From assembly GCA_963764725.1 (NCBI GenBank), contig CAVXTM010000001.1:384001-448000 (forward strand): a stretch of 64,000 nt of DNA, given 5' to 3'. The stretch is from an uncultured Gammaproteobacteria bacterium. GTDB taxonomy: Bacteria; Pseudomonadota; Gammaproteobacteria; JACCXJ01. A model generated the notes under the pieces. The model made no database searches. It saw only the letters and a list, made by a program, of their open reading frames with translations, and was not told the origin of the DNA. Shown here piece after piece: positions 42,817 through 61,589 of this stretch. The translations under genes and the position numbers were made by a program. Position 1 is the first letter of the stretch. Each line of letters begins with the position of its first letter.

Positions 42817-44572
42817 ATGGCTACAATAGCAGAACCGGGGACGGCGGACGGACGCGTGAAGCTGGGTCTCGCGCTCTCGGGGGGCGGTTTTCGCGCCTCG
42901 TTTTTTCACCTGGGCGTCCTGGCCCAGATGGCGATGCAGGGCTTGCTGCGGCGGGTGGAGGTGATCTCAACGGTCTCGGGCGGCTCGATCATCGGGGCGC
43001 TTTACTACCTGCACCTGAAGCGGCTGTTGGAATCGGAGGCGGACTCCGACCTGACCGATGGCCACTATCAGCGCTTGGTCGAGGACATCGAGCGCGATTT
43101 CTTCGCGGCCGTTCAGACCAATCTTCGCATGAGTACCTTCACCGATCCGGCCGCGAACTTCAAGATCAGACGGCCGGACTATTCGCGCAGCGACCGCATT
43201 GCGGAGCTGTACAACGATCGCCTTTACCAAGGTGTCCTGCCCGGCCTAGAACCCCCTATCAAGATACGCGAGGTCAAGATCCAGCCTAAAGGGAGCCAAT
43301 GCGGGGTTTCACCCCGAGCGCGACAACCACGGCAGAGGCGCTAAGGTCCCTATTCTCCTTGTCAATGCGACTACGCTCAACTCCGGCCGTAACTGGCGCT
43401 TTACCGCATCGCGCATGGGAGAACCGCCGCGCGACAACGCCCTAGCAAGAGAAATAGACAAGAAGGCGATCCGCTTGCGCCGGCCGCCGTCCTACACCGA
43501 CATCCCGCCCTACCAACAAGACTTTACCCTAGGCCACGCCGTAGCCGCGTCCGCGTGTGTGCCGGGGATCTTTCACCCGCTCGCGATCAGTGGCCTGTAC
43601 CGTGATCCCGAGATGGGAGACGAGATCCGCGTGCAGTTGGTCGACGGCGGTGTCCACGACAACCAGGGGATCCAGGGTCTCCTGGACGAAGCCTGTACCC
43701 ACTTCATCGTGAGCGATGCCTCGGCCCAAATGGAAGAGATAGATGAGCCCGCTACCTACTTCGATGCGGTCTTGGGCCGCGCGGCCTCGATCTCCCAGGA
43801 CCGCGTGCGCGAAGAACAGCTTTTCCGTCTGTGGGGCCCCACCGACCGATCGCGCATCGCCTTCATGCATCTCCGGGCGGGACTGGCCACTCGTGCCATC
43901 GCCTGGCTGGGACCCGACGGGCAGCCCGGGACTCCCTCGGAGGAAGTCCTGCGACCTGCGATCTCGACCGCCGATTTTCATGTCGATGACCGGGTCCAGG
44001 ATCTCGTTTCGGGGATCCGAACCGATCTCGACTCCTTCACCGAGGTCGAGGCCTGCACGCTCATGGCGGACGGGTATCTGATGAGCGACTCCGAACTCCA
44101 CAGCTTGGCTGCGGCGGTGGCCGGCCGGCCGGGTGGGACCCCAAGGCCCGCGGATCTGGCGCCACCTGCGTGGGGTTTCCTCAAAATTAAGCCCTGGATG
44201 GAACGGCCCAACGAGGCCTATCTCAAGCAACTCAAAGTGGCGTCCTATCAATTTCTCAAGCTATTCCACTTGGTCCTGCCCGGCTGGGCAAAGGAGGCGT
44301 TAGCGGTGCTCGCCCTCCTAACGCTTCTCGCGCTCGTCTGGATCCTGATCGATGTGAGGTTCTCCCTGGGCCTTATACTGCTGATGGTGATAATGTGGGG
44401 GCTGAATCGCTACAGCCGAAAGCTCGGCCGCGGCGTGTGGGTATTCCGCGTGCTGCGCGCGCCCGTGGAGGCCATCGTGCGCTTGATCACGAGAGCACTC
44501 ATCCCGATGCTCGGGTCCTGGGCCATAAACTTACACTACATCAAGCGCCAGGCGAGCATGGTGCTCGCATAG
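42817..44572 (+). pseudogene. Patatin-like phospholipase with C-terminal TM helices, frameshifted near 43300
   Basis: LSGGGFRA, TVSGGS, NATTLNSG, AASACVP, DGGVHDNQG. Confidence 0.85.
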
Positions 44573-44806: not shown

Positions 44807-46483
44807 CTAAAGCGTTTTCAGATATTCCAGCAGCTCCCATTTCTGGCTGTCACTGAGGGTCACGCCATAGTCATGGCCGGAATTACTGTTACCCGGCAAC
44901 CGTGTATTTAAACTTGAACCGCCCGTCTCCGGCCCGCTCTCGAAGCCGACGTGCAGCGGGTCAAACTCGTAGCTGCCCACATAGAACACCTGGTCTCGCC
45001 GCGCGCTGGGTTGCAAGAGCTGCCACAAGCTCGGCACCGATCCGTTGTGTAGATAAGGAGCCGTCGCCCAGATGCCATTGAGCGGTCGCGCTTTATAAGA
45101 GAGGGGATCGAAGGGAGTGGCGTTTCTTACCTTTAAATATTCGTTAAATCCGGCACCGATCGCTTGCAGGGGCCGCCCAAGAGCGACCCCGGCTGCGATG
45201 ACGGGTCCTAGTTTGGTGCCCGGCGCCACCGGTCCCAAGCGGTCGCCGATCAGGATCATTTCGCGTGTGCCTTGCAAGACACCGGTCTTGGCGGTACGCC
45301 GGAACGCGTTGGTAGCCATCGCCGGGTCTGTACCCACGTCCGCGAGGCGGGTCATGACCGCGTTGACTCTCCGTTTGCGGTCCGTCCGTTCGATGGGCGC
45401 GTGGCAGCTAACGCAGTATTGCTGGTAATGCAGCTTGCCGCGCTTGGCTTTGTCCGCATCGATCGGCGTCAGCAAAGCCACAGGCCATTGCGGCGACCAC
45501 AGATCCTGTAACCAACCTTCGAGCTTTCCTAGATTCTTGACTTTGATCGACGATTTGAACCCCTTGGGCAATGGCGAGCCGGTCACCGTAACGTTGCCGA
45601 AGACCCCCAGTACTTCTCCGATATTGCGCAACAGGGAACCGACGCCGGCGTTGGGAGCGCTGCCGTTCCATTGCACGACATCGTGTTGCGGCGTATCCCA
45701 GATGAATGGGTAAGACACCGGCGCGCCCGGGGATATCTTGTTTTCCGGTATGCCCAAGTCGCGCACGAACGCTTCGTTGAATATATTCCCGATAGCGTCG
45801 ACACGACCGTGTCCAGGGGGGCTGGGCGGCAGGTTGAGGGTGACGCGATCGGCTAACGCCTCGATCCGGGCATTTAGGCTGCGGCGAAGCTCCGCGATCG
45901 CTTGCTGCGACCCTCCGGCGACTGGCGCGGCGAAGCGCTGAAACTTTGCCTGGTCACTGGCGGTGGCGCGGAGCGCGGCCACGAGATCATCCAGGAGCGC
46001 GGTGAAATCGCCGAGGGTCGGCCCCCCATCCACACGTATGATTTTACCGCGGTACTTGACTTGCCCCGTATGACAGGCGGCGCATGTCGGCCCCATCCAA
46101 TCTTCCCCGGTCGCCGGATCGCGCGTTTTAGCGAACCCTATCGGCAAGCCGTCGGGATTATATTTCGACGGCGTTTCGGGAAGGTAGCCTAAGCGCTCGA
46201 TATTTTCATTTGCGCGGAATGCTGACGGACTCCCTGCCTGCTCCAACGCCAAGAACCAGCTATAGGGCAGGATCTGACTCCCTTGATCGGTGAACCAGAA
46301 GCGCTGCTGTGTATCGGCGCTCCAGCCTTGATCGAGGGTGACGATCGAGCCAGCAGCCGGCCCACCGGCGGTGGCCTGCCCTTCGGCGGGGTAGTCATCG
46401 CCCTTGATTCCACTGCTGCATCCTACGGCGAAACCGCCCGCTAAAATTGCAAGAGATTTTAAGACGTGGAGATAACAGCGCAT
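44807..46483 (-). CDS. Di-heme cytochrome c lipoprotein (RoxA/di-heme peroxidase-like)
   Basis: Lipobox AVGC; CAACH and CVSCH; YKARPLNGIWATAPYLHNGSVP. Confidence 0.88.
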   Translation of the reverse strand: MRCYLHVLKSLAILAGGFAVGCSSGIKGDDYPAEGQATAGGPAAGSIVTLDQGWSADTQQRFWFTDQGSQILPYSWFLALEQAGSPSAFRANENIERLGYLPETPSKYNPDGLPIGFAKTRDPATGEDWMGPTCAACHTGQVKYRGKIIRVDGGPTLGDFTALLDDLVAALRATASDQAKFQRFAAPVAGGSQQAIAELRRSLNARIEALADRVTLNLPPSPPGHGRVDAIGNIFNEAFVRDLGIPENKISPGAPVSYPFIWDTPQHDVVQWNGSAPNAGVGSLLRNIGEVLGVFGNVTVTGSPLPKGFKSSIKVKNLGKLEGWLQDLWSPQWPVALLTPIDADKAKRGKLHYQQYCVSCHAPIERTDRKRRVNAVMTRLADVGTDPAMATNAFRRTAKTGVLQGTREMILIGDRLGPVAPGTKLGPVIAAGVALGRPLQAIGAGFNEYLKVRNATPFDPLSYKARPLNGIWATAPYLHNGSVPSLWQLLQPSARRDQVFYVGSYEFDPLHVGFESGPETGGSSLNTRLPGNSNSGHDYGVTLSDSQKWELLEYLKTL

Positions 46484-47269: not shown

Positions 47270-50200
47270 ATGCGCAATACTTACCACGTATTTTTAGCAG
47301 TCGTCCTCTCGTTTAGCTCGTATGCCGCAGCGTACGGAGAGGAGATCCGCGATTACTACGCCGAACCGGGTCTCAATCCCTTCAAGGAGACCCTCAATCA
47401 AGATCTCAACGAACACATTGATCCCTTCTCGGGCACCTTGCAGCACAAATACGTCGATATATACATCCCCGGCAACGGCGGTCTGGATCTCAAGGTGAGC
47501 CGCGTGTATACGAGCCCGCAAGAAGCTCTCGGGGTGCGCACCGTCACCGGCGCAGGGTGGACCATGCATTTCGGCCGCGTCGTGATTCCTACGGACTACA
47601 CGGACACGCTCTGCCTGCAAGACCTCTATGCGGTCAGCACCCGCGATAACCCATCGATCGAATTCCCCGACGGCGGCCGCGAGCTCTTGGTCCTCGATGC
47701 AGTGCACGGCACCTATCTCCTCACTAAGGGCGGCTGGCGGGCCATGTGTAACGGCAGCGGTCAGGGGCTCATCGTGACCTCCCCCACGGGCACGGTGTAC
47801 ACCATGGACGCGCTCAACACCCTGAACAACCATTGGAGCTGGTACACGACCAATATTCGTGATCGGCATGGCAACACCATCGACGTCACCTACAAGACCA
47901 ACTCGTCGAACTTTATTTACATCGACACGGTGACTGCAAGTGACGGCCGTCAGGTCAAATTCGAGTACCTCAATGAGGAAAGCGCGACTATCCGGCTCGA
48001 TAAGATTACTGCCAATGAGCAAACGTGGATTTACCGTTACGAACGGATCGAGGCGATCGGTCCCGGGTACGGCAACAATTACCATAACCTCATCGAGGTG
48101 ATCCGTCCCGATGGTTTGCGGTGGCGATATAGTTACTATCCTTATACCTCCCTTGAGACGGCCGGCAACTACGCTCTCAAAACCGTCACCTATCCGTACG
48201 GGGCCAATATTACCTACACGTATCAGCATATCGATTTTACCCCCACCGATCTGTCGATCGATAGGACCACCGCTATCGCCACCAAGGAAGTTTCCAGTAA
48301 TCCACCCGGGATCTCGATGGGCCCCGGCTCGTCCTTACCCAGTGGCACCTGGAGATTCGAGTTCGCGCCCCATTCACCGGAGTTATTCTTTACCGACAAT
48401 GGCACGTGGACTTCCGGACTCGACAAGACCACCGTGAGAATGCCGGGCGGCAAGCAGGTTTACTACCACTATGGGTACTCCTATACCGGGGGGCTGTCGA
48501 GCGGCATCCTGTGGGCGACCGGTCTCCTCTACAAGCAAGAAAGCTGGGACGGCTGCTCGGCCGACAGTTGCGTGGGCGTGGCATCGACATTAGTGGATGA
48601 AGTTACCAACGGCTGGGAACCGCGATTGATCTCCCGCGAGAACTTTTGGCATGGCCGTGAGGGGGTCGAAGAGGACACCTACGCCCCCCAGCTCGCGAGG
48701 AAGGTTCATAGCCGCGATGATTCCGGAAATGAGATCCGCTATGAGCAATACGATGCCTTCGGTAATGCAGGGAGAATCATTGAGAGCTCCAACCTCACTG
48801 GGGATCCCGACAAGGTGACCGAGCTCGGCTACTACATCGATCGCGAGAAATGGATCCTCCATCAAGTCGACGACGAGACCATCCTCGGGGTGAATGGCGA
48901 GGTCGTGAGCCATACCGATCGTAGCTTCAACGAGGACGGCGATCTCATCGCCGCGGATCAGAACGGCGTCCTGACGAGCTATACCTACACTGCCGAGGGG
49001 GATCTCGCCACCGCAACCGACGCGCGCGGGAGTACTACGCGCTATGCGCGCTACCGCCGCGGCAGCGCGCAGATCGAAGAGCATCCCGAGTCAGTCACGC
49101 TTTCGCGCGTCGTCAACGACACCGGCACCGTCGCTTCAGCGATCAACGGCCGGGGATTTACCCGCCACTTCACCTATGACGGCACGAACAGGCTGACTGG
49201 AATCACCTATCCGAACCATGCCCCGGTCAGCATCGTCTGGGACGCGAGCGGCAAGACTCTCACCCGCGGGAGCTACGAGGAGCGCATCGCATTCGATGGC
49301 TTCGGACGGGTGGTCAGCACCACGCGCGCCGACATGGCGCGCGATATTAGCATCACACAAACGATGAAGTACGACGTCCACGGCAACAAGATCTTCGAGT
49401 CCTATCCAAACTCCGAAGCCGGGGTGAGTTATGCCTATGACCTTCTCAAGCGCCTCACCACCCTGCGGCACCCCGACGGAGCCCTACGGAGCTACGTCTA
49501 CGGGGGCGGTGAGGTAGCGGAAACCGACGAGCGGGGCAATACGACGAATTACCTCTACCGCAGCTTTGGCGATCCGGACAAGGACAAAGTCCTTGTCATG
49601 ATTACCGAGCCGAATGGGATCTACACGATCCTCGACTTCAACCTACTCAACCTCCTGACGAGCGTGTTCCAGGGCGACCTTACCCCCACGGGATCGCTCT
49701 CCGGCTTTACGCGTCGGCTGAGCTATGACAGCCGCTATTTCCTCACCTCGGTCTCAGATCCCGAGACCGGAGTGACGAGTTACGGACGCGACGAGGTGGG
49801 CAACATGATCGCGCGGCAGGTGGGAAGCTCGGGGGTGACGGCCTACACTTACGATGCTCTCAACCGCCAGGTGTTCAGCGACTATCCGGGCACCACCCCC
49901 GATGTGACCAAGAGCTACGATGCCGATGGACATCTCACCAAGCTCACCAACAGCCAAGCCGTGATTGACCACCGTTATGACGAAAACGACAACCTCATCG
50001 AAAAGGTACTGACGCTCGACGGCGTCCCCTATGCGCTCAACTTCACCTATAACGCGCTCGACGGTCTCGCAACGCTTACCTACCCCTCGGGGCGGGTGGT
50101 CAACTACCTCCCGGATGCCTTCGGTCGGCCGACTCAGGCCGCGCCTTACGTGAGCGGGGTGAGTTATCATCCTTCCGGCCAACTCGCCCGGATTAACCAC

Positions 50201-52310
50201 GCCAACGGCGAGCGCACTGAGATCACGCTCAACGAGCGGCAGTGGATTTCCGAGTTTCTGCACCACGGACTTGCGGAGCTCCATTATGGTTACGATGCGC
50301 TCGGCAACGTGCTCGGCCTGACCGATCCCTTGAACCCCGCCGAAGACCGCGCCTTCGGTTACGATGCGCTCAATCGGCTGACGAGCGCCCAGGGCCGGTG
50401 GGGTCAAGGAACCTTGAGCTATGACGCCTTGGGCAATCTGCGCTCGCTGAACCTGGGTGCGAACACCGAGCGCTACGACTACAACGGCCTGCGGCTCAGG
50501 ACGCGCATCCATAACGAGACCACTAGCTCCTGGTACACCCATGATGTCTATGGCAACGTCCGGCTGGACGTGGATGTGCTCGGTTTAAGCTCAAATGCTC
50601 CGCAGTACCGAGGGCGGCAGTATACCTACGATGATGCGGGAAACTTGCGCAATGTGCTCCGAACGGAGAACATCGGGAGCAATCCGGTGTCCTCGCAGTA
50701 CTACTTCGACTACGATGCTTTGGGGCAGCAGATCCGGCGCACCGCTCCCAACGGGGAGATCATCCACTTCGTCTATGGGCGCACCGGGCAGTTGCTCGGT
50801 GAGTACAGCGGCTCGCTCGGTTACGGCAAAGAATATGTCTACCTCGGCAGCCAGTTGGTCGGGAGCGCCCAAACCAACCAACCTCCCGAGGCCCAGGCCG
50901 GAGCGGACCGGAGCGTCAACGGCGGGGCGTCCGTGCAACTCGATGGCCGGGGCTCGACGGATCCCGATGGCGCCATCGCGCGTTACGCCTGGGTGCAGAC
51001 CGAGGGCAGTCCCGTTACCTTGAGCGGGGCAGCTGCAACGGTGAGCTTCAGCGCCCCGGTGCTGGAGAACACCTCGGTGCTCGGCTTCACCCTCACCGTC
51101 ACCGATGACAGCGGCGAGGAGGCACAGGACAGCGTGCGGATCACCGTGCTCGGGAACCCTGCACCCACCGCTGATGCAGGCCCCGATCAGAGCGTGCGGG
51201 GTGCTGCCATTGTCGCTCTCGACGGGACGGCCTCGAACGACGCCGACGGCCACATCGCCCGCTACGCCTGGCGGCAGATCGGCGGCATGCCTGTGACCCT
51301 GAGTGGGGCCGACACCGCGATCCCGAGCTTCACCGCACCGACGCTAGCCGAGGCCCAGGTGCTGAGCTTCGAGTTGACCGTAAGCGACAATCTCGGCGCG
51401 CAGGCCACCGCCGCGGTGCACATCACCGTCCTCGGCAACGAACCCCCGAGCGCCCATGCGGGTGCCGATCAAACGGTGCCGGGTGGCAGTCCGGTAGGGC
51501 TCGATGCCACGGGCTCGACGGATCCCGAGGGGAGCATCATCGCTTACACTTGGTCGCAGACGGGCGGTCCGGCCGTGAGCCTGATTGGCGCAGATACCTC
51601 GACCCCGACCTTTATGGCCCCCCTCTCTGGCAACGACGAGGTGCTCAGCTTCACCCTCACGGTGAGCGACGACATCGGTGCGAGTGGAAGCGATTCGGTG
51701 ACCATCACCGTGCAACGCGTAGCGCTCGGCAATCAACCCCCGAGCGCCGAGGCGGGAGTCGATCAAGAGCTACGCGCCGGGGGTGTTGTAGAGTTGAATG
51801 GCGGGGCCTCCACCGATCCCGAGGGCCAGCCCCTTCGCTATCAGTGGGCCCAACTCGAAGGCCCGCGCGTCCAGCTCGCGGGCGCGAGCACCTCCCGGGC
51901 GCGCTTCACCGCCCCTTATGTCGCGATCGACACGCTCCTCCGCTTTGAGCTGACGGTGACCGACAGCGCAGGGCTCTCGGCCGAGGACACGGTGGACATC
52001 GTGGTGCAACCGAATGTACAGGGCACAGACACGCAAGCACCCATCACCCGGCTCTTCACCACCCCCCTGCGCTTCGGAGGCAGGGTATACTACCCCGTGG
52101 CTTCTCAGCGCCAACGAGCCTGCCACCACCTACCTGCGGGTGAGCGATCCCAACGCGCTCAGCCTGGGGGCGCTCAAGACCACCGAGTGGCAGGTGTATC
52201 GAGGACCCTTCCTCGTCACGCTCACCGCCGCTCGGACCCTTACCGTGGAGTACTACTCCATCGACAGCGCCGGGAATCAGGAATCCATCAAAACAAGGGT
52301 ATTGCAGTGA
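47270..52310 (+). CDS. Secreted Rhs/YD-repeat shell protein with four PKD/Ig repeats and a C-terminal beta-sandwich (frameshift near 52100)
   Basis: Signal peptide; IDPFSG..IPGNGGLDL..GW Rhs N-terminus; many YD repeats to EYVYLGSQLVG; natural C-terminus (TVEYYSIDSAGNQE) lies in ORF 52014-52310. Confidence 0.85.
50876..52015 (+). repeat. Four PKD/K319L-like Ig domain repeats of about 95 aa
   Basis: NxPPxAxAGxDQ...LD..S.DP.G..Y.W.Q..G starting at 50876, 51155, 51437 and 51731. Confidence 0.9.
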
Positions 52311-53259
52311 TGACAACCAAAGGACGGTGTATGCGTTTCCTTATTGCGTGTCTCCTCACACTCCTCGCCCTGCCGGCAGGAGCGATCGAGCGGGTCATCC
52401 ACTACCACAACGACGCCTTGGGCTCCCCCATCGCCGCGACCGATCAAGATGGCCGCGTGGTGTGGCGCAAGTCGTATGGGCCCTATGGCCAGCCTATCGG
52501 CCCGGGGGCCCCGAACGAGCCCGGTTACACCGGCAAGTTCGACGTGCCCGGCCTCGGCATCCAAAACTTCGGGGCCCGCTGGTACGACCCGCGGATCGGC
52601 CGCTTCCTCGCCATCGATCCCGCGGCTTCGATCCCTAGAACCCCCAGAGCTTCAACCGGTACGCGTATGCCAATAACAACCCGTATCGCTTTGTAGACCC
52701 CGACGGCAATAGTCCCCTCGATGTAGGCTTCTTCATCGCCGACACCGTCAGCTTCGGGCTCGCGGTGGCCTCGGGAAACCCGGCCGCCATCCAGTCTGCG
52801 GCCTTCGACTTCGCTGCTAGCGCCGTGGGCCTTGCGAGCCCGATACCGGGAACCGGGCTCGCTATCAAGGCGGCACGGGCGGGGGATAAGATCAGCGACG
52901 CGGCGAAGATAACTAAGGGTGCAGCGAACCCAGTTCCAGAAACGCTTGCTCGTGTTATTCCGGGTCGAGGGCCGTTTCCGACACTTGGCTCGCCAGGGAA
53001 AAGCGATGTGTTCGTTACGGCTGCCGACGATATTGCGGGCTTGAACGCTAAACAAATCGCCGATCGACTGACTATCGCTCCAGCTGACTCCTTCACTGTC
53101 ATCAAGTTTCCAACTCCAGAGAGTGGGTTAGCCAGCCCGGTCAACCGGGTTGGTCCCGGCTTCGTTGGCGGAGGGCGAACAGCTGGCGGCGCTCGCGAGT
53201 TCGTCGTCCCCAACGGACCGATTCCGTCGGGCGCAAGCACTGAGATTATCGGCCCATGA
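52310..53259 (+). pseudogene. Signal-peptide Rhs-core protein with C-terminal toxin (Ntox10-like); frameshift and TAG near 52620-52638
   Basis: MRFLIACLLTLLALPAGA; YHNDALGSP, GYTGK, GARWYDPRIGRF, NRYAYANNNP..DPDG; tip ASPVNR..GFVGGGRTAGGAREF. Confidence 0.8.
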
Positions 53260-53540
53260 AGCTGCAGCCGCAAGAAACCGATCTTGTAGGGACATGGATT
53301 AGCAGCGGACGTGCGGTGCGCGCAGACGAAACTTGTAGGCGTATCGAATGGCTTGTCAAGGAAGTCTTGGAAGAAGTGGCCGTGAGTCCTCAATGGGGCG
53401 CATGGGAGACGCTATTCCGCGATCTCGAAGATGGTCGCTTTTGGGAGCGTACTTACCCTGAAGGGCATATGCACGGCGGTGGCCCCCCGCGACTGACATG
53501 CATCTCGCCGGAAGAGGCTAGAACCAAGTATGCGATATAG
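53256..53540 (+). CDS. Imm27-like immunity protein
   Basis: ATGA overlap with the toxin stop; RIEWL, WETLFRD..DGRFWE, HGGGPPRL. Confidence 0.8.
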   Translation: MKLQPQETDLVGTWISSGRAVRADETCRRIEWLVKEVLEEVAVSPQWGAWETLFRDLEDGRFWERTYPEGHMHGGGPPRLTCISPEEARTKYAI

Positions 53541-53579: not shown

Positions 53580-53969
53580 TTGTCAATGTCCAGCCATGCC
53601 GTTGATGACCTTGTTGGCAGGACCTTCTACGCCTCCATTGCGGAGCCTTGGGATTTTGAGTCAGATGCAGGGCAAAACAAGTTGGAGGGCACGATTCAGC
53701 GCGCTCTTTTTGATCGGTATGGGAATGTGCTGTTGCTTTGTCAGGTGGTACCCTTTTTTTTCGCGACAAAGAGAATCGACGAAGTTGTAGCAGTAAACAG
53801 GTATCAGGGTAGCCAAGATGTGCTTGATGCTCTGAGAGCTAAAGGTACCGCAACTTTGAATTTCATGTTCCAGAGATCTGGGGGCGCGTTCCAGGATGGT
53901 AGTATTGAGATTTCATTGAGCGATAGGCGTAGTTGCGGTTTTGTGGTCGGGACGATGCACTTGCCGTAA
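53580..53969 (+). CDS. Hypothetical protein, possible orphan immunity gene
   Basis: Short, lower-GC ORF directly after the immunity gene; no family recognised. Confidence 0.5.
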   Translation: MSMSSHAVDDLVGRTFYASIAEPWDFESDAGQNKLEGTIQRALFDRYGNVLLLCQVVPFFFATKRIDEVVAVNRYQGSQDVLDALRAKGTATLNFMFQRSGGAFQDGSIEISLSDRRSCGFVVGTMHLP

Positions 53970-54097: not shown

Positions 54098-54631
54098 GTG
54101 AAACGACAAGAAGAGGAGCGGCCGCGCTTCCCTTCCGCTTATTTCTGGGCGATGGCACGGATTTATGAAGTCTTCCCGCTGCTCTGTCCGCGTTGCGCCG
54201 AAGACGATCATCGCCTTCGTCACCGAGGCGGGCTCGATCAAGCGTATTCTCGAATACCTCGGGCAGCCGACAACTCCGCCCCCCCATTACCCCCGCTCGC
54301 GGCCCGCCGCACTGGGGTCGATGACATCGATCAAACGCCGAAGTACGACGCGGCGCTCGCTCAGCGAGCGCCGGACTATGAGTTTGATCAGACCATCAGC
54401 TCATTTCGTCTCCCGGTCGAGATCCTCGGCCGGCAGAGCTGCCCTCGCCCTAATACACCCGTTTCCGGTCCCTGAGTCACCCCGACGCACCAGGCAATGT
54501 CCTTTCCTGCCGCTAGACGGCCCACACATGGCCTCAATCGCCAGGGTGCGACCTGTCGCGCGACAGTATGTCGCCTTCCCATCCCCATGGGCGTAAGCTA
54601 GAATCTGGGTATGTGGTTGGATTTCCTATCC
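54098..54631 (+). mobile_element. IS91/ISCR-family remnant: transposase C-terminus plus oriIS-like end
   Basis: WA..ARIYEVFPLLCPRC / IIAFVTE..IKRILEYLG..PP..ARGPP across frames; GGTTGGATTTCCTATCC at 54615-54631. Confidence 0.75.
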
Positions 54632-54739
54632 ATTATCCATCGACCTGGAGATGCCCCCACCTCCACGATCAGAGCCGTGGCATCGCCCGAGCCGTCCGCC
54701 ATCGTGGAACACCATCGCTCCACGAATAGCCCAGCTGCC

Positions 54740-56790
54740 ATGAGAACTGCGGCCACCGAAGCTCTCTACGTCCGAAATACCCCGGAGGCCCGCGACCACG
54801 TGCAACGCTGGATGCCGATGGAGGTTGACCAGCTCAAGTCCGAGCCACTGCGGCGCGTCGCCCCGTTTGAGGCGACGCTTCTCGAACGCGGCTTCCCGTT
54901 CCACGAACTTTCGCTGGTCATCAGTGCCGACCGGCGAGCACACGACCCGGTCTACGGCGCCCACCGGTGGTGGGCGCGGCGCCCGCCAGCGCTCCTCAGG
55001 TCCATTTTGCTCACTGCGGCGCTGCCGGCTGACGTGTCGTCCAATGAATTCTGGGCGCTGTATGGGTCGAACGGGGCGCTTGCTCGATGGATGGCGTGTC
55101 CATGATCCCTTCGTCGGGGGTGGCTCGACACTTGTCGAGGCAGCTCGTCTGGGAAGCAGGATATCGGGCGGCGACATCGATCCGTTGGCGGTCGAACATC
55201 GTGCGGTATGAGCTGAACCCTGCGTCGGCAGAACAAATCCGTGCCGCAGGGGAGCAGCTGCTGACCTACGTTCGCTTGCAATGTGGGCACCTCTATCCGT
55301 CATCGGCACGCAGGCAGCCGCTCCATTACTTCTGGCTCCACGAAGTCACTTGCCCCTCCTGTGGCGGGATCGGCCTGTTGTATCGCGATCTCCTGCTCAC
55401 ACGAGATCGGCAGAAGCCAGGCGCCGTGGTTCGCGATCACCCTCTCACCGTCTTCTGCCCGAGTGACCTAAGCATCCATCATCTCAACAGCCCGGATCGT
55501 CGGGAGCTTCGACATCGCGGTCGTCGATGGCCGATTGCCCGCGGCACGTTCAGCCGCAACAGATACACCTGCCCTCACTGCGGCAAAACTTCGACTCACA
55601 AGGAACTACTCACGGGTAGCGCACCACGCCGCTTGATTGCTGTGGAGGACACTGCACCAGGGCAACGCCGAACCCTGCGCAAGCCATCACGCGAGGACAT
55701 AGCGGCGATGGCCCGCGCAGCCGTGTGGCTGAGCGAACACCGCAACACATTGGCGCTCCCGACCGCAGTACTGTCGAAGGAGCGTCACGACGAGCGGCCT
55801 CGGAGCTTCGGGATGCTCCACTCGACGGACCTGTTCACCGACCGGCAGCTGACGGTCTTTGGCTCTGCGTTTCGATGGCTTGGTACGGCAGACCTTGAAC
55901 CGAACGTGCGGGATGGTCTCCGTCTCGCCGTCTCGAACGCGCTCGCGACGAATAACAAGCTATGCAGCTATGCCTACGATTATGGTCGGCTGTCGGCGCT
56001 CTTCAGCGTGCGCGGCTATTCGCTGCCTGCGCTACCGGTCGAACTGAACCCTCTCCATCCAGACAGCGGTCGTGGCACGCTCCACCACTGCATAGAACGC
56101 GTCGCGCGAAGTGGTCGTGAGAAGGTTCGCCGTCACGTCTGGTCACCGGCCCGTGACTGTGTCTATGCTCGAACCCTTGATTTGCCTACCGGTGTTGCCA
56201 CCGACGATGTCCGCTGTACCTCGGCAACCTCCCCGCCGGCGGCTGGTGCGCCGAGCGCAGACCTTTGCGTCTTCGACCCGCCGTACTTCGACTACATCGC
56301 ATACGAAGAACTATCGGAGTTCTTCCGGGCATGGCTCGAGCCGAAGGCAGTGTCGGGAACGCCTCTCCTGCCCGTCGGGCGCGACCCCGGCGAGTCATTC
56401 GGCCTCGAGCTCGGCGTAGCGCTGCGCGCAGCATTAGCACGCCTCGCACTAGGCCGCCCCCTCGCCTTCACGTATCACTCGACCAACCCCAAGGCCTGGC
56501 GAGCCGTGGGCATCGCAATAGACGAAGCAAAGCTTCGGGTTATGGGCCTGTGGCCCGTGTACAGCGACGGCCACATGGGTCACCACAGCCACCCCGGAAA
56601 CTGCGAGTGGGATTTAGTGGTCGTGTGCCGTCGCGTCAGTGAGACGGTACCAGCAACCGCCACATTCGATACCGACGTCTGGGCCCGGACAGCACAACCG
56701 CTCGCTATCGGTGATGCCGATCGCACCAGCATGAAACTTGCGATTTCCATCGTCAGCTCCCGTTTCGGGACCGCGGCCAAGGAGTTATGA
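54740..56790 (+). CDS. DUF1156/COG1743-type adenine DNA methyltransferase with Zn ribbons (frameshifts near 55085 and 55195; start uncertain)
   Basis: HRWWARRP, motif I DPFVGGGST..GDIDP, CxxC pairs, LFTDRQL, motif IV DPPYFD, FTYH. Confidence 0.85.
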
Positions 56791-56791
56791 C

Positions 56792-58125
56792 TTGAACGCC
56801 GACGAGCGCAGTCAGCTCATCCGGGCTCGCCAGCAGCCAGCTACACGCCCGCCTGAACGACTTTGGGTGCGGGACCAGTGGCAGGAGTTCCCGGTAGTAC
56901 AGGTCCCGGTGGAAGCGCTCGCGCTCAACGTCGACAACCGACGATTTGCGGCTGAGCGCACATGGGCGGAAGAGAAGCTCGGGCGAGCACTCGATCCCGA
57001 GAACCGGCCCGAAGACGAGCGCGTCGTCGAACAGATTTTGCTCGACACCGCGCTCGACTTCGATGGTGATCGTCTCGTGGGTAAGCCGAGTAAGGATTAC
57101 GACGCCCTGAAGAAGGACTGGCAGCGACGGCATCAAGAATCGCCCCTGTGGATCCGCCCAGACGGAACTGTCCGGAACGGAAACCGACGGCTCGCGATGC
57201 TGAAGCGGCTGCAGCGCGAAGAAGGTATAGAGGGCTTCGAGTACGTGGACGTCGTGATTCTAAAGCCCGATGACATCGATGAGGTCGCGCTGTTCGACAT
57301 GGAGCAGCGCGAGCAGCTGACCGAGAACCTCAAGGTCCGATACACCGACATAAATCTGCTTCTTGCCATACGAGCGGCTGCAGAGTCACGGGGCATCGAC
57401 TGGTTCAACCCGGACGACATCGACCGCGTCGCGGGCGAACTCCAGCATGTCGTCGGGAACAACAAGGCCTACGCCGCTATCCAGCTCAGCGCCATCCGTT
57501 ACATGGATGCGTACCTGGATAGCTCCGATCAGGCTGGCCAATACCACAAACTCATCGGTCAGATTGAGCGCTTCCGTGACGTCGGTAAAGCAATGACCAA
57601 GCTTGAGGTCGACTACGAAGATGATGTCCCAGCCATGCTGCGAGTTCTGTTCGCGGCCATCCGTGCGGGTGCCCCGCACGGCGACATTCGCGTTCTGAAG
57701 AACTTATTCCTCCACGACCGCGCGAGATATAAACAGCTGCTCGCGCAAGTGGACGGAATCGAGGCGAGCTGGGAGCAGGCCGCCGGGCCGGACAGCCTCG
57801 CGGAGCCTGAAGTGGTCGACATCGCCCCTGCTGCAGACGAAGAAGAGGACGAAGACGAGCTAGCCGAGCCGCCGGGTCCGAACGTGCCCAACTACCCGCG
57901 TGACGATATCCGGGACGCCATCGACAACACGATCGATGGCTTCCAAGCGTCCATGACCGATGACGTCGCCAAGACGCTCCGCCAGATCCTCAACCGGTTA
58001 GAGGCCTCAGCGATGACGGCGGTAAGCTCGATCAAGCTCTCGGGGGTGAGCACGCTGTACGGGTCCGGGACGCTCTCGCTGCGATCGTCGCCTGGGCGGA
58101 TCGTCATCGCGACCTGCTCGGTTAG
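56792..58125 (+). CDS. ParB/Srx-like N-terminal domain protein (frameshift near 58005)
   Basis: LNVDNRRF, QESPLWIRPDGTVRNGNRRLAML ParB-fold motif; helical acidic C-terminus; RBS AAGGAG. Confidence 0.75.
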
Positions 58126-58127
58126 CG

Positions 58128-60095
58128 ATGGCCGGCGAACCTGCCGACGCGACTATCCGCATTAACGGCGAGTCGGTCCTAGTAACCGGTTCCGAGGCTC
58201 TACAGAGTCGCAACGCGCGTCTCTTCTTCCGCTCCGTTCTCGGCGCGGATGGCGAGGCCGGCGGCTGGCGTTGTCCGCGTCGCAACCGCTCCCTCGCTGC
58301 GCTGGTCGTTCGGGTCAACAATTTCCTGGAGAACCAAGGGTGGCGAGTCGAACGAGAAGGACTAGCCGACCGGGAAGTTGAGCGAGAGCTCGAACGTCGC
58401 CGCAGCTTCGAACGGACCCGCCGAACTGCCTCCGAGTGGAAAGAGGGAAGCCCGGTCATCGACCGCGAGGCGGTTCTCGCCGGGATCAATGATCTTGGGT
58501 GGTCACAATCGCGAACTCTGCGGCCACACCAGGTAGATGGCCTCTTGCACGCCCTCGTCGCGGGAAACGCAGCAAACTTTTCAGTACCGGGCTCGGGCAA
58601 GACCGCTACGGCACTCGCCGTCGCGGCCGCGCATCTAGTGGCCGGCACGATCGACACAGTTGTAGTCGTGGGACCCTTGGCCTGCTTCAGGCCGTGGGAA
58701 GACGAAGTGGCAGCGACGCTCGGTAGCGTGCTCCATACGAGGCGCATCCGTGGTCCGGCTCGCACGAGACGCCTGCAGTACGACTCAACTCAGCCTCGCG
58801 ATCTGCTACTCCTCAGCTACGCGACTGCAGCCGCAGACCTACTTGTACTAGTCGAACTCTGCAGGGGCCGCGATGTGATGCTCGTCGTCGACGAGTCGCA
58901 CCGCATCAAGAGATTCCGTGGTGGCCTGTGGGCACCAGCACTCATGCAGATCGCAGAACACGCACGGGTCCGGCTACTTCTTTCCGGAACACCGATGCCC
59001 CAGAGCGGCCGTGATCTGTATAGCCAGCTCAACGTCATCTGGCCCAACCGGCAGCTCACCGGTCCACCGGACACATTCGCCTCGCGGGTCGATTCTCAAT
59101 TCGAAGGCGTGCTGTGCGACATCCATCCGTTCGTTGTGCGGACGCCGAAAGAGAGCCTCGGACTACCGCCGTATGAGATCCATCGGCACGACATCGCCAT
59201 GAACGCGACACAGGCCGAGATCTACGAACTGATCGTCAACCACTTCCGACGCAGGCTTGAAGACGCCGACGCATGGGTCGACAAGTTGGACGCCCTGCGC
59301 CGTGCGCGGCCGATTCGGCTCCTGCAGGCTGCCACTAATCCGAACCTGTTCAACCGGTCCGACAGCTACTACCGCGTCCCCCGCATCGACCGCGCGAATC
59401 CGACCCTCATGGATCGGCTCGCCACGTACATGGAGCACGAAGTCCCGGCCAAGCATGAACTAGCTCTGGTGCTCGTCGCCGAAGCAACGGGGCGCGGCGA
59501 AAAGGTTGTCTGTTGGAGCAACTTCCTCATCAACCTCGATCAATTCGGCGATCTCGTCCGGAGACGCCTCGACATCCCGTGCCATCAGGTCGACGGGCGC
59601 GTGCCGACGGACGACGAGCCCGTTGATGACCAACCAGCCGCGTCGCGCAAGAACTCGGAGGAGATTGATACGCGCGAGAGAATCATTGCTCGCTTCCTCC
59701 GAACGCCCGGCCCAGGGGTGCTAATCGCCAATCCCGCATCGTGCTCGGAATCCATCTCGCTTCATACCACCTGTCATAACGCGGTTTACCTTGACCGAAC
59801 TTACGACTGCGCCCAGTTCCTGCAGTCGATCGACCGGATTCACCGCCTCGGCTTGCCAGCTGATGTCACTGTCCAGGTCCATATTCTCCGCGCCAGTCTC
59901 AATGGCGAGCCCGCAGTCGACCACCTCGTCGACGCCTCACTCCTGGCGAAGGAGGCGGTGATGCTTGAACTACTCGAGGGTGCCGTCCTGCAGCCCATTA
60001 GGCAGAGCGACGACCCTGTCGACGATGCTGAGGGCAATCGGCAGGATCTCGAAGCGCTGCTCCGGTATCTCCTCGGAGAGGAGGTGGGCAGCTGA
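58128..60095 (+). CDS. SNF2-family SF2 helicase/ATPase
   Basis: LRPHQ, NFSVPGSGKT, VVDESHRIK, SGTPMP, SESISLH, QSIDRIHRLG. Confidence 0.92.
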   Translation: MAGEPADATIRINGESVLVTGSEALQSRNARLFFRSVLGADGEAGGWRCPRRNRSLAALVVRVNNFLENQGWRVEREGLADREVERELERRRSFERTRRTASEWKEGSPVIDREAVLAGINDLGWSQSRTLRPHQVDGLLHALVAGNAANFSVPGSGKTATALAVAAAHLVAGTIDTVVVVGPLACFRPWEDEVAATLGSVLHTRRIRGPARTRRLQYDSTQPRDLLLLSYATAAADLLVLVELCRGRDVMLVVDESHRIKRFRGGLWAPALMQIAEHARVRLLLSGTPMPQSGRDLYSQLNVIWPNRQLTGPPDTFASRVDSQFEGVLCDIHPFVVRTPKESLGLPPYEIHRHDIAMNATQAEIYELIVNHFRRRLEDADAWVDKLDALRRARPIRLLQAATNPNLFNRSDSYYRVPRIDRANPTLMDRLATYMEHEVPAKHELALVLVAEATGRGEKVVCWSNFLINLDQFGDLVRRRLDIPCHQVDGRVPTDDEPVDDQPAASRKNSEEIDTRERIIARFLRTPGPGVLIANPASCSESISLHTTCHNAVYLDRTYDCAQFLQSIDRIHRLGLPADVTVQVHILRASLNGEPAVDHLVDASLLAKEAVMLELLEGAVLQPIRQSDDPVDDAEGNRQDLEALLRYLLGEEVGS

Positions 60096-60096
60096 C

Positions 60097-61066
60097 GTGC
60101 CTGTGCTCTCTTCCTGGTTCACGGCACCTCGAGTGCGTCGTCTGCACGAGGTGCTCGCGGCGATACCGGAACGGTCGCTAGCGCTCGCCGAGGGCGATGC
60201 GAAGCTGTGTATCTGGCGGCGTTGTGGTGGGCCGATCGATGAAGTCGGCGTGTTGGTCGAGGTTCTCGTCCATGCCGAACTTGTGCGCCGCGAGAAGGCA
60301 TCACTCCGGTTGACTGCCGCTGGGCGCCGGACACTCACGCGTAACCGCGTCGAGCAGAATCGGCCGCTCGCGCTCGCCCTCGTCCGAGCGGGACTGCTCC
60401 ATGACCAAGCGCGAGCATTGCTCGACTCCTTCCCTGTCGACCCTGACGGCAGCTTGACTTGTCGAACCAACGATGCGCGTCGTGTTGCTCCCCAGCTCGT
60501 TGGGCTTGTTCAGCTCTGGACCGAGGTCCGCACTGGCTCCACGTTGACCATCCCGCGTCCACTCGTTGACGAGCTCGCCGCCGTGTGGGCGCTCATTGCA
60601 CCGCCGTCAGAGGCACGGGCAGAGCAAGAGAAAAGACGCAAGTCGATCGGGAACCGCGCAGAGGCCTACAGCTACCAACTGGAGCGGCTCACAGCGGCAG
60701 CCGCGTCCGGGATCGTCTGGGTCGCGCAGGACGACGACACGCTTGGCTATGACCTGGAGGATCGCAGTACGTTGCCCCGTAGACGGATCGAAGTGAAGGG
60801 AAGTGGAGGAGAAGCTAGAGGCTCAGTTCTTCATGTCGGACAACGAATGGCGAAAGGCCCACGAGAACCCCGGAAGCTACGAGATCCACTTCTGGGGCGG
60901 GATAGACCTCAATCGACCCACCGCCGACGAATACTCCGTGCTGCGGTCGATGGGATATCCGATTGTGCTGCGAGACGTGCCAGCGCTCCTCGCCGCGGGA
61001 GAGCTCTTGGCGAAGCCAGATCGATGGCGCGTCGCGGCGGCTCGCAGCGCGGAGACGCCGCTATAG
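60097..61066 (+). CDS. DUF3883 (NOV-C)-like PD-(D/E)xK nuclease domain protein (frameshift near 60815)
   Basis: IGNRAE...WV..DDTLGYDL...IEVKGS then FFMSDNEW..A..Y.IHF. Confidence 0.8.
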
Positions 61067-61164
61067 CAGAGAGGGAAAGGCGCCAGGAGCGAGTATTTCG
61101 ATCGATGCCCAACAAAAAAATAAGCGACCCTGGCCCCTTCCGCGCACACCCCTCGCGCTCACCC

Positions 61165-61266
61165 GGCGCGACTCCTGTGCGCCGGGACTTGAATATGCCT
61201 GGAGGTGGTCAGGAAGTCACCTTCGATACCTTAATCCCGCCGGAAGCAATCAGGAGGGTCAGATGA
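61165..61266 (+). pseudogene. Possible orphan toxin C-terminal tip
   Basis: TPVRRDLNMPGGGQEVTFDTLIPPEAIRRVR*, coupled by ATGA to a small downstream ORF. Confidence 0.4.
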
Positions 61267-61589
61267 TGATGAACGACCTCCTCCAACTCCTTAATGGTGA
61301 AGTGGCTGAGTTCCCGAGTCGGGCTTCAGGCGAAGAGGGTTACGAATACATCAACAAAATTGCGGGACGTTATGTCACCTCGGAACGGCAGAAATTGGTT
61401 GCTGCACTCACGAGTTGGCTTCAACTGAGGTCGGAGCCCAAAACAATGATTGCGGTTGATGTCGCGAGTAAACTGCATTTGAACGAGTTACGTCCAGAGA
61501 TCGAGAAGCTTTTGGTCGATGTCGAGCAGGGAAAAGCATTCTTGCCGTTTTATGCTCGACCAATAAAAGCTGCGCTCGCGATGATTTAA
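61263..61589 (+). CDS. Small helical hypothetical protein, possible immunity protein
   Basis: RBS AGGAGGG, ATG overlapping the upstream stop, lower GC. Confidence 0.6.
   Translation: MMMNDLLQLLNGEVAEFPSRASGEEGYEYINKIAGRYVTSERQKLVAALTSWLQLRSEPKTMIAVDVASKLHLNELRPEIEKLLVDVEQGKAFLPFYARPIKAALAMI

Follow-up and report, generated by a model that had tools for sequence, protein, structure and literature searches.

A putative two-chain Rhs toxin: a core-less shell gene and a core-toxin gene with its own predicted signal peptide in an uncultured gammaproteobacterium

Results

Genes of the locus

The window, i.e. the whole stretch of 64,000 nucleotides (nt) that was analysed, belongs to an uncultured Gammaproteobacteria bacterium (assembly GCA_963764725.1, contig CAVXTM010000001.1, positions 384,001 to 448,000 of the forward strand). 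It carries an Rhs locus of three successive genes, whose features are compiled in Table 1: gene 1 encodes a YD-repeat shell lacking the Rhs core, gene 2 the missing core together with a toxin, and the third gene a putative immunity protein. The locus probably represents an Rhs polymorphic toxin made of two chains, of which this copy bears three lesions. The signal peptides of both toxin genes were judged by inspection and by a hydrophobicity rule; to the eye they show basic residues, a hydrophobic stretch and an A-x-A-like end.

Table 1 Features of the Rhs locus, in positions of the window.
Feature	Position	Strand	Basis
Gene 1: putative Sec signal peptide, core-less YD shell, four PKD domains, small all-beta end	47270..52310	+	
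Predicted signal peptide of gene 1, MRNTYHVFLAVVLSFSSYAAA, then conserved motif EEIRDYYAEPGLNPF	47270..47332	+	inspection
YD shell, mature residues to amino acid (aa) 1198, end ...GKEYVYLGSQLVG	47333..50863	+	
Four PKD/immunoglobulin (Ig)-like domains, aa 1203-1584	50876..52021	+	Pfam
Beta-rich terminal domain of gene 1, frame defect inside	52022..52307	+	
Lesion 1: one extra G, shifts gene 1 into the frame of gene 2	52099..52099	+	
Gene 2: predicted signal peptide, Rhs core, DPDG, Ntox10; broken by lesions 2 and 3	52310..53259	+	
Predicted signal peptide of gene 2, MTTKGRCMRFLIACLLTLLALPAGA, predicted cleavage before IERVIHYHNDALGSP	52310..52384	+	inspection and alignment of 28 homologues
Rhs core (plug) of gene 2, ends VDPDG (52696-52707)	52385..52707	+	
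Lesion 2: one base missing, core of gene 2	52623..52624	+	
Lesion 3: TAG stop in the core reading frame	52636..52638	+	
Ntox10-family toxin domain	52708..53256	+	PF15520
Imm27-family immunity gene	53256..53540	+	PF15590, E 3.3e-19

The shell of gene 1 is recognised by the families RHS_repeat (Pfam PF05593, E 1.2e-37) and YD_repeat_2x (NCBIfam TIGR01643, E 5e-21), and the closest solved chain is 7q97_A, an 'Rhs family protein' (E 6.9e-14). At the N-terminus a weak DUF6531 match was obtained (19 bits against a Pfam cut-off of 24.1). Behind the shell, the Pfam families K319L-like_PKD (E 1e-70) and PKD_4 (E 7.6e-29) each match in four stretches, and this region resembles the C-terminal part of M36 peptidases as well (NCBIfam profile positions 1184-1567 of 1604), far under the cut-off. 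Three-frame translation yields a C-terminus ...EYYSIDSAGNQESIKTRVLQ with the stop codon TGA at 52308-52310. Thereby the layout which the initial annotation had given for gene 1, that is, a YD shell up to EYVYLGSQLVG, four PKD repeats and a TGA ending at 52310, was recovered at the same positions, with E values of the families far beyond chance. The terminal beta-sandwich of that annotation is weakly supported: the domain has no Pfam match, an OmpL47-type match from NCBIfam reaches 29.4 bits and stays under the 40-bit cut-off, and a single-sequence fold of the terminal domain of the intact G006 orthologue consists of strands only at a predicted local distance difference test score (pLDDT) of 44.7.

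In the deposited DNA this architecture is masked by one uninterrupted open reading frame (ORF) of 1808 aa (47270-52696), which results because the wrong frame stays open past the defect in gene 1 and enters the frame of gene 2. Translation in all three frames and separate family scans of the pieces show that two genes are joined here by a frame defect.

Gene 2 starts within the stop codon of gene 1: TGA 52308-52310 and ATG 52310-52312 share a base in the junction TGATG, and in the same manner the TGA of gene 2 (53257-53259) is overlapped by the ATG of the Imm27 gene (53256). Residues 30-61 of gene 2 match the RHS core of Pfam (PF03527, 40.1 bits against a cut-off of 27.9), and Rhs_assc_core of NCBIfam (TIGR03696) scores 38.6 bits against 32.5, plus a tail of 22.4 bits. 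An alignment of 28 gene 2 homologues contains many invariant core residues up to D130-P131-x-G133, including the aspartates D93, D103 and D130 as well as P131 and G133; the N-terminal segment drifts without constraint in sequence, and no relationship is seen between the toxins. The three aspartates may be the catalytic residues of an autoproteolysis that would release the toxin. Among solved chains, those of Rhs, TcC and teneurin type are matched by the profile of this alignment at their C-terminal core. A lipoprotein signal on gene 2 was considered and rejected, as the hydrophobic segment has no Cys close to its end.

Both the Ntox10 match (147.3 bits against a cut-off of 26.8, E 6.4e-43, profile positions 1-192 of 193) and the Imm27 match (69 bits against 27.3) exceed the Pfam gathering scores, and the two lie adjacent in the order toxin, then immunity. 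According to the accessible part of Zhang et al. (2012, PMC3482391), Imm27 is listed as the primary immunity protein of Ntox10, and Ntox10 is a T2SS-class toxin (T2SS, type II secretion system). The whole succession of TGATG start, signal-peptide-like segment, core, DPDG, Ntox10 and Imm27 gene had been described correctly in the initial annotation, and the coordinates that it gave are right.

Two-gene layout in relatives

Both genes are intact at five loci in four genomes of the same genus (one each in G006, G001 and G003, two in G005). The intact gene 1 orthologues in G006, G001 and G005 show 84-87% identity; the C-terminus of gene 1 within the genus reads ...KTRVLQ*, and in G003 ...KLLRRSR*. 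The intact orthologues of gene 2 at these loci comprise 229-314 aa and begin with a signal-peptide-like segment followed by ERVIHYHNDALGSP, the signal peptide of G003 having another sequence (MNHGMRRFISLLLTLLSLNAQA) of the same character. TGATG is kept at four of the five loci. The toxin tips vary from locus to locus, and that of G006 is Ntox10-like, as in the window. Neither in the window nor at any of the five loci do shell, core and toxin stand on one polypeptide. Homologues of gene 1 were also read in G010 and G014; the claim of conservation rests on G006, G003 and public records, and it holds without G001, G005, G010 and G014. By these alignments, the layout is not an accident of the window's genome.

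For a wider view, the first 130 residues of gene 2, taken from G006, were used as query. They are matched by 2105 of 2306 candidate proteins of 172-550 aa. Among 30 short proteins that were read, 29 possess a basic and hydrophobic N-terminus ending a few residues before (V/I)xYYHNDALGSP, and one begins at the core itself. Precomputed family assignments among the short proteins include Ntox10, TNT and several others. Proteins of 551-2000 aa reach at best 57% identity to the query, while the first 76 short proteins listed range from 73 to 97%; the best long relatives fall into two kinds, canonical fused Rhs proteins of 1400-1700 aa and proteins in which Ig-like domains precede the core and shell repeats are missing.

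Furthermore, an even draw of 401 genomes of the class was searched. An Rhs core was found at E 1e-10 in 89 of them and the short form in at least 13, the window's own genome included. In six of these at least 13 genomes (G269, G153, G145, G367, G039 and G247) the small gene lies directly behind a large YD protein; in G011, G264, G176 and G285 there is a contig end or no recognisable shell in the stretch upstream of the small gene. A short match in G189 was not counted as split type, since it has no signal-peptide-like start.

A further set comprises 78 loci with record titles from species-representative genomes, drawn as the best 80 of 564 and hence biased to the split-type query. The 114 core matches at these loci divide into 98 short ones, 13 long ones and 3 at contig edges, and a Met followed by K/R and a hydrophobic stretch precedes the core in 84 of the 92 short genes that could be assessed. 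The 13 long matches are of mixed nature: three are same-genus split loci with an open frame, two belong to the signal-peptide type, two are truly fused, four have Ig-like N-terminal parts and two are ambiguous. The truly fused forms carry the ancestral junction ...EYAYLGDKLVAATENPATPAPERVHYYHTDVLGSP, and the split point falls within that linker. According to the record titles, the layout ranges over Gammaproteobacteria, Betaproteobacteria and a few other phyla.

Two other arrangements of the core were encountered. In a third architecture, Ig-like domains (Big_7, Big_3_5 and others) precede core and toxin in the same chain, with no YD repeats; it occurs in L097, L100, L112 and L126 (Duganella and Pseudoduganella records) and in P0241-P0249. 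In a metagenome-assembled genome of Rhodocyclaceae (L092:9001 and L092:11137), the hydrophobic leader of the core follows in frame after a PEP-CTERM-like tail ...PLPGTATLLLAAILAWLITFAQR, twice in tandem.

Break point of the shells

The ORFs of at least 300 aa that lie upstream of the small genes were aligned with the shell of the window. Of 40 such ORFs, 23 align to its very end, ...EY[IV]YLGxxx[IV]A. Seven of these 23 shells end only 5-13 aa past this break point, including, by record title, those of Methylovorus menthalis VKM B-2663, two Undibacterium species (one of them U. jejuense KACC 12607) and Arhodomonas sp. AD133, and the other 16 continue for 112-2497 aa. Two of the 16 extensions, one from a close relative and one with N, were left out of the domain scan; 13 of the 14 scanned extensions contain families of the Ig-like, PKD, fn3, cadherin-like, carbohydrate-binding module (CBM), TSP3, propeller, FG-GAP or dockerin type. 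When the hydrophobicity rule was applied to the 23 shells, a signal-peptide-like start was called in 15 of the 19 whose N-terminus lies inside the locus, and in 13 of those 15 the motif (E)IRDYYxEPGINPF stands after the signal peptide, as in the window. The core family PF03527 was found in none of the best 120 relatives of the window shell. Between shell and small gene, the codons overlap or the spacing amounts to -16 to +109 nt.

Because the shells stop at the same point and the extensions vary, the system is, as far as these alignments go, defined by its break point, to which the PKD 'cap' adds just one optional extension out of many. The initial annotation had described an adhesin-capped shell; the PKD domains are present here, but a cap does not define the system, given that the extension ranges from 5 to about 2,500 aa.

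At one locus of a complete genome (L055, G039:C1:2076000-2088000) the shell ends ...EYIYLGGKRIAQRVSN* without extension and the small gene is next. The shell frame of this locus has 662 aa, with another frame of 417 aa upstream, so the shell may be broken there too.

Copies of the small gene

The small genes also occur in tandem arrays at several loci, for instance with four members each in L113 and L119 and five in L123. Comparison of copies within genomes (13 pairs from 6 sets) gave 84-96% identity for the cores and 8-25% for the toxin parts; three more sets failed the motif rule and remained unscored. Tandem and remote copies keep the core and change the toxin, by which the cargo subunits would be interchangeable.

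Predicted docking of shell and core

For complex prediction, residues 380-1200 of the G006 shell (alignment of 53 rows) were combined with residues 26-135 of G006 gene 2 (28 rows). The interaction prediction score from aligned errors (ipSAE) of the pair was 0.83, 0.84 and 0.86, and each of three controls gave 0.00. The pLDDT of the partners does not fall below 84, and 98% or more of the contacts are shared between the runs. Of solved complexes, 58 of 80 attain the docking mark, as do 2 of 110 mismatched pairs, counts which are only rough where own alignments are used. Predicted contacts connect shell residues 1194-1200, the last strand of the shell, with core residues 27-36, the first strand of the core, and this pairing of strands is the one expected of a continuous chain.

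Lesions of this copy

An alignment of the junction with the five loci of the relatives locates three lesions. The extra base at 52099 is absent from all five loci, the base missing after 52623 has a counterpart in all five, and in place of the TAG at 52636-52638 the relatives have CAA, CAG, TCG or GCG. The statement of the initial annotation that both genes have frame defects is right in that both are affected; in gene 2, two lesions were found rather than a single frame defect. An alternative that places just one shift in gene 2, in the C run behind the TAG (IPRTP-QSFNRY), was rejected, as all five relatives read GFDxxNPQSFNRY.

The same positions were inspected in four public runs, three of them cave metagenomes (X1, X2 and X5) and one a soil metagenome (X8). 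Their contigs are those of relatives and not of the source, the best run containing 0.30 of the sampled words; they are 85-99% alike over 51500-53300, a stretch which is fully covered in the three cave runs and in 27 of 30 bins in the soil run. In the contigs of all four runs there is one base fewer at 52099 or 52102 and one base inserted behind 52622. The T at 52636 is replaced by C with contig depths of 3698.4/3698.4 in X1, 495.6/495.6 in X2, 763.4/816.5 in X5 and 1033.3/1039.5 in X8. Over the conserved core (52415-52720) the contig depth is about tenfold higher, and therefore many related cartridges co-occur in the cave and soil samples.

The lesions may be errors of the assembly, or this copy may be a real pseudogene of a system that decayed in the host organism. 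In favour of decay, three lesions are crowded into about 540 bp, and one is not an indel but a C-to-T nonsense change; both essential genes that were probed, rpoC and dnaE, are intact; and the locus holds the only Rhs core of the genome. On the other hand, split genes are frequent in this assembly, affecting a patatin, a DUF1156 methylase and probably an esterase within the window, and a dnaE2-like gene and gspD elsewhere. Both indels alter the length of a G run, and the lesions of gene 2 fall where conservation is highest, in a stretch on which contigs from many organisms accumulate and which would be prone to polishing errors. As other genes of the assembly are split too, we consider assembly error to be somewhat likelier than decay, the latter being a serious though lesser possibility.

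Genomic surroundings and secretion genes

Divergently oriented upstream of gene 1, a gene at 44807-46483 on the minus strand encodes a protein of 558 aa in which a RoxA-like cytochrome c domain and haem motifs of the c type are recognised. About 3 kb upstream of the Rhs locus, a patatin-like phospholipase lies in two ORFs on the plus strand (42817-44572), of which 42817-43341 corresponds to profile positions 1-50 and 43415-44569 to positions 148-187 of 191. Directly after the Imm27 gene stands a 129-aa ORF (53580-53969, plus strand), for which Pfam, NCBIfam and PADLOC gave no match; it might be an additional, orphan immunity gene. Short ORFs at 54098-54596 separate the Imm27 gene from a defence-island-like block at 54611-61589 on the plus strand. 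The block contains a DUF1156/type II methyltransferase split into 54611-55102 and 55087-56787, followed by a 475-aa ORF and then an SNF2-type helicase (58128-60092) with weak ZorD/DrmD-like matches; more ORFs follow to 61589. Elsewhere in the genome, a second DnaE-family gene is split in two adjacent frames (G000:C8:2688-5335, profile positions 2-536 and 536-887), and so is a GspD-type secretin (G000:C15:292909-294743, positions 1-373 and 407-600).

The two pieces of this secretin adjoin a weak GspL-like match. Of the other T2SS families that were sought in the window's own genome (96.9% complete), T2SSL gave one sub-threshold match of 19.4 bits and T2SSM no match. Neither TssC/VipB nor PAAR is matched in this genome, and the initial annotation had seen no PAAR or VgrG gene at the locus. 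A search for VRP1 (TcA) gave no match, and its control matched in no genome either. The features of an effector delivered by type VI secretion (T6SS), namely linkage to PAAR or VgrG and a T6SS, are thus not found, and both chains have a signal-peptide-like start.

Discussion

A proposed two-chain assembly

We propose that the two genes encode the two parts of one toxin. Chain 1 would be a putatively Sec-exported YD shell whose last strand (...EY[IV]YLGxxx[IV][AG]) is followed by only a few more shell residues, and its free C-terminus could carry Ig-like, PKD, fn3, cadherin-like, CBM or propeller domains. Chain 2 would provide plug and cargo, is predicted to be exported separately by Sec, and has its core (YHNDALGSP ... 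DPDG) within about five residues of the signal peptide. Sec would carry both chains across the inner membrane. Outside the cytoplasm, the mature core chain would then add its first strand to the last strand of the shell; the core would close the cage around the toxin and cleave the toxin at the DPxG motif. The particle would then leave the cell, perhaps via type II secretion, and the shell extension would bind the target. A rationale for the cut may be that one chain cannot both turn inward with the toxin and display outer C-terminal domains, a conflict that two chains would solve. Assembly after export, encapsulation and adhesion are steps which we infer.

The initial annotation had already suggested a two-chain toxin, and this suggestion is supported by our results. 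It survived on all three counts on which it was open to refutation: close homologues are not single fused chains, in view of the five two-gene loci, the lack of PF03527 in the 120 shell relatives and an identity of at most 57% for long proteins; the predicted signal peptide of gene 2 is conserved as a feature, although its sequence drifts; and the predicted complex of shell and core passes its controls (0.84 against 0.00).

Taken further, the cut before the core would free the C-terminus of the shell for interchangeable targeting domains and make plug and toxin a cartridge that exports itself. One and the same shell could then be loaded, without recombination, by cartridges of a tandem array or of remote sites, and the product would be an Rhs cage assembled outside the cytoplasm from two Sec-exported chains, i.e. 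a modular, secreted, T6SS-independent bacteriocin particle. We offer this broader picture tentatively and give it slightly less than an even chance.

Several observations weigh against the two-chain assembly. Concerning the survey, 14 of the 40 upstream ORFs have no match to the shell end and three more match partially, 8 of the 92 short genes received no signal-peptide call, and the choice of the best 80 of 564 loci favours split forms. Behind DPxG the residue varies among N, R, E and K; canonical Rhs proteins have Leu at this place. Genes composed of signal peptide, core and toxin also stand alone, namely a second copy in G269 among housekeeping genes, one in G394 next to a sigma factor and one in G274 next to a transposase. 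Furthermore, a shell query at E 1e-5 found no match in G274 (94% complete) and G285 (58% complete), which may count against an obligatory partnership or may reflect divergence. The docking prediction used own alignments and a shortened shell (aa 380-1200); because the core matches the cores of solved Rhs, TcC and teneurin chains, the pass may reflect the likeness to these single-chain structures and not the binding of two chains. As a further difficulty, an exported, unfolded toxin would have to get into the cage, and the outer membrane would have to be crossed by a particle larger than 170 kDa. Finally, the locus is broken in its own genome, where the GspD gene is in two frames as well.

Alternative explanations

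The stand-alone genes, distant as they are from any shell, and the lack of a match to the shell query in G274 could also be accounted for by independent secreted proteins: a YD adhesin or carbohydrate binder on the one side and a stand-alone toxin with the core as self-cleaving pro-domain on the other, without any assembly. Core chains which have their own Ig-like N-terminal domains and no shell repeats point in the same direction. Yet the parts are exactly complementary, since the shells stop where the core begins in fused relatives, and none of the 120 shell relatives has a core of its own. In addition, stop and start codons either share bases or are spaced by -16 to +109 nt, the predicted strand-to-strand docking passes its controls, and even the genome with the stand-alone gene of G394 encodes a core-less, fn3-extended YD protein on another contig. 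We therefore regard independent proteins as unlikely.

Another possibility would be a single-chain rhs gene disrupted by insertion of the PKD domains, with gene 2 as a silent orphan cassette whose signal-like start is fortuitous. Orphan rhs cassettes beginning inside the core are well known, and the high identity of the cores within a genome is what recombination substrates would show. This scenario becomes very improbable in light of the signal-peptide feature, which is kept in 84 of 92 short genes despite freely diverging sequence, of the coupling of the gene 2 start codon to the upstream stop, of the same break without insertion in the seven shells with only 5-13 extra residues, and of the occurrence of the layout in several classes and phyla, as far as record titles tell. 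One chain might also be produced by recoding, that is, by a programmed frameshift or read-through at TGATG; after all, the deposited window has a single open frame of 1808 aa, and in the same-genus relatives the frame of gene 2 is open far upstream. We give this hardly any credence: the fusion in the window stems from an extra base that none of the five relatives has, the roughly 70 fused codons look like out-of-frame sequence, elsewhere there are gaps of up to 109 nt in various frames, and a signal peptide inside a chain would be hard to rationalise.

Rhs proteins count among the most frequent carriers of bacterial toxins, and in current structural work the cage is treated as one chain that wraps its own toxin during cytoplasmic folding. 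With respect to the two-chain toxin proposed here, a widespread split form raises the questions of whether an Rhs cage can be loaded after export, whether one shell can take up several cargos in trans and whether the variable C-terminal domains set the target range. The split form is found in cultured, non-pathogenic isolates such as Undibacterium jejuense, Methylovorus menthalis and Peristeroidobacter soli. For annotation, thousands of short 'RHS repeat domain-containing' proteins that are now easily taken for fragments or orphans may be functional subunits, complete in themselves.

Comparison with known systems

With canonical Rhs proteins the locus has in common the YD shell, the DPxG core, the C-terminal polymorphic toxin and the downstream immunity gene, and the core profile of gene 2 matches the C-terminal core of 7q97, Tse5, Tse15 and others. 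In contrast to the canonical form, which is one chain, folds in the cytoplasm and travels on PAAR/VgrG, the window type is cut before the core and has two putative signal peptides. Our search of the literature outside subscription journals and supplements brought up no account in which shell and core are divided and the core gene has a signal peptide.

Classical orphan rhs cassettes are not known to carry export signals, and they are regarded as acting once recombination has joined them to the main gene. The small genes resemble these cassettes in that they are short, start at the core, carry a variable toxin with an immunity gene and are often in tandem; unlike them, the modules of the window type have their own start codon and a putative signal peptide. 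Such C-terminal cassettes of rhs genes are discussed in the accessible part of PMC3482391.

RHS toxins of the T2SS class are described there as having an N-terminal signal peptide and RHS repeats without a T6SS (Zhang et al. 2012, PMC3482391). For the RHS bacteriocin Bcn-A of Xanthomonas perforans, the accessible sections report activity in the supernatant, dependence on xpsD (type II secretion) and on a separate 290-aa ORF bearing a signal peptide, and a model in which residues 1309-1398 of ORFA itself cap the barrel (PMC7259588). In what is accessible of these two papers on Sec/T2SS-class RHS toxins, a pair of core-less shell gene and signal-peptide core gene is not described (PMC3482391, PMC7259588).

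Teneurins likewise have a YD shell followed by domains outside the shell, and the core profile matches teneurin-4 and teneurin-like chains. They differ in being one-chain eukaryotic membrane receptors with contiguous plug and outer domains and in having no toxin-immunity pair.

In the Tc toxins, the shell is shared about equally between TcC and TcB, the latter also bearing a propeller, and the assembly docks on TcA; the chains of the Tc cocoon are not known to carry Sec signal peptides. The core of gene 2 matches those of TccC3 and YenC2. The split point of TcB-TcC differs from that of the window genes: the TcC-type chains YenC2 and TccC2 have 664-970 residues with the core at about 565-780, whereas of the cage chain 2 in the window holds only the core, about 105 residues long. 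As proposed for the window type, the TcB-TcC cocoon is an RHS cage of two polypeptides whose cargo subunit is exchangeable and possibly encoded elsewhere; C subunits encoded at separate loci are reported in the accessible part of PMC11067744. The parts of the system are thus all known, namely the YD shell, the Rhs core and the Ntox10/Imm27 pair, and the closest precedent for their distribution over two chains is the TcB-TcC cocoon.

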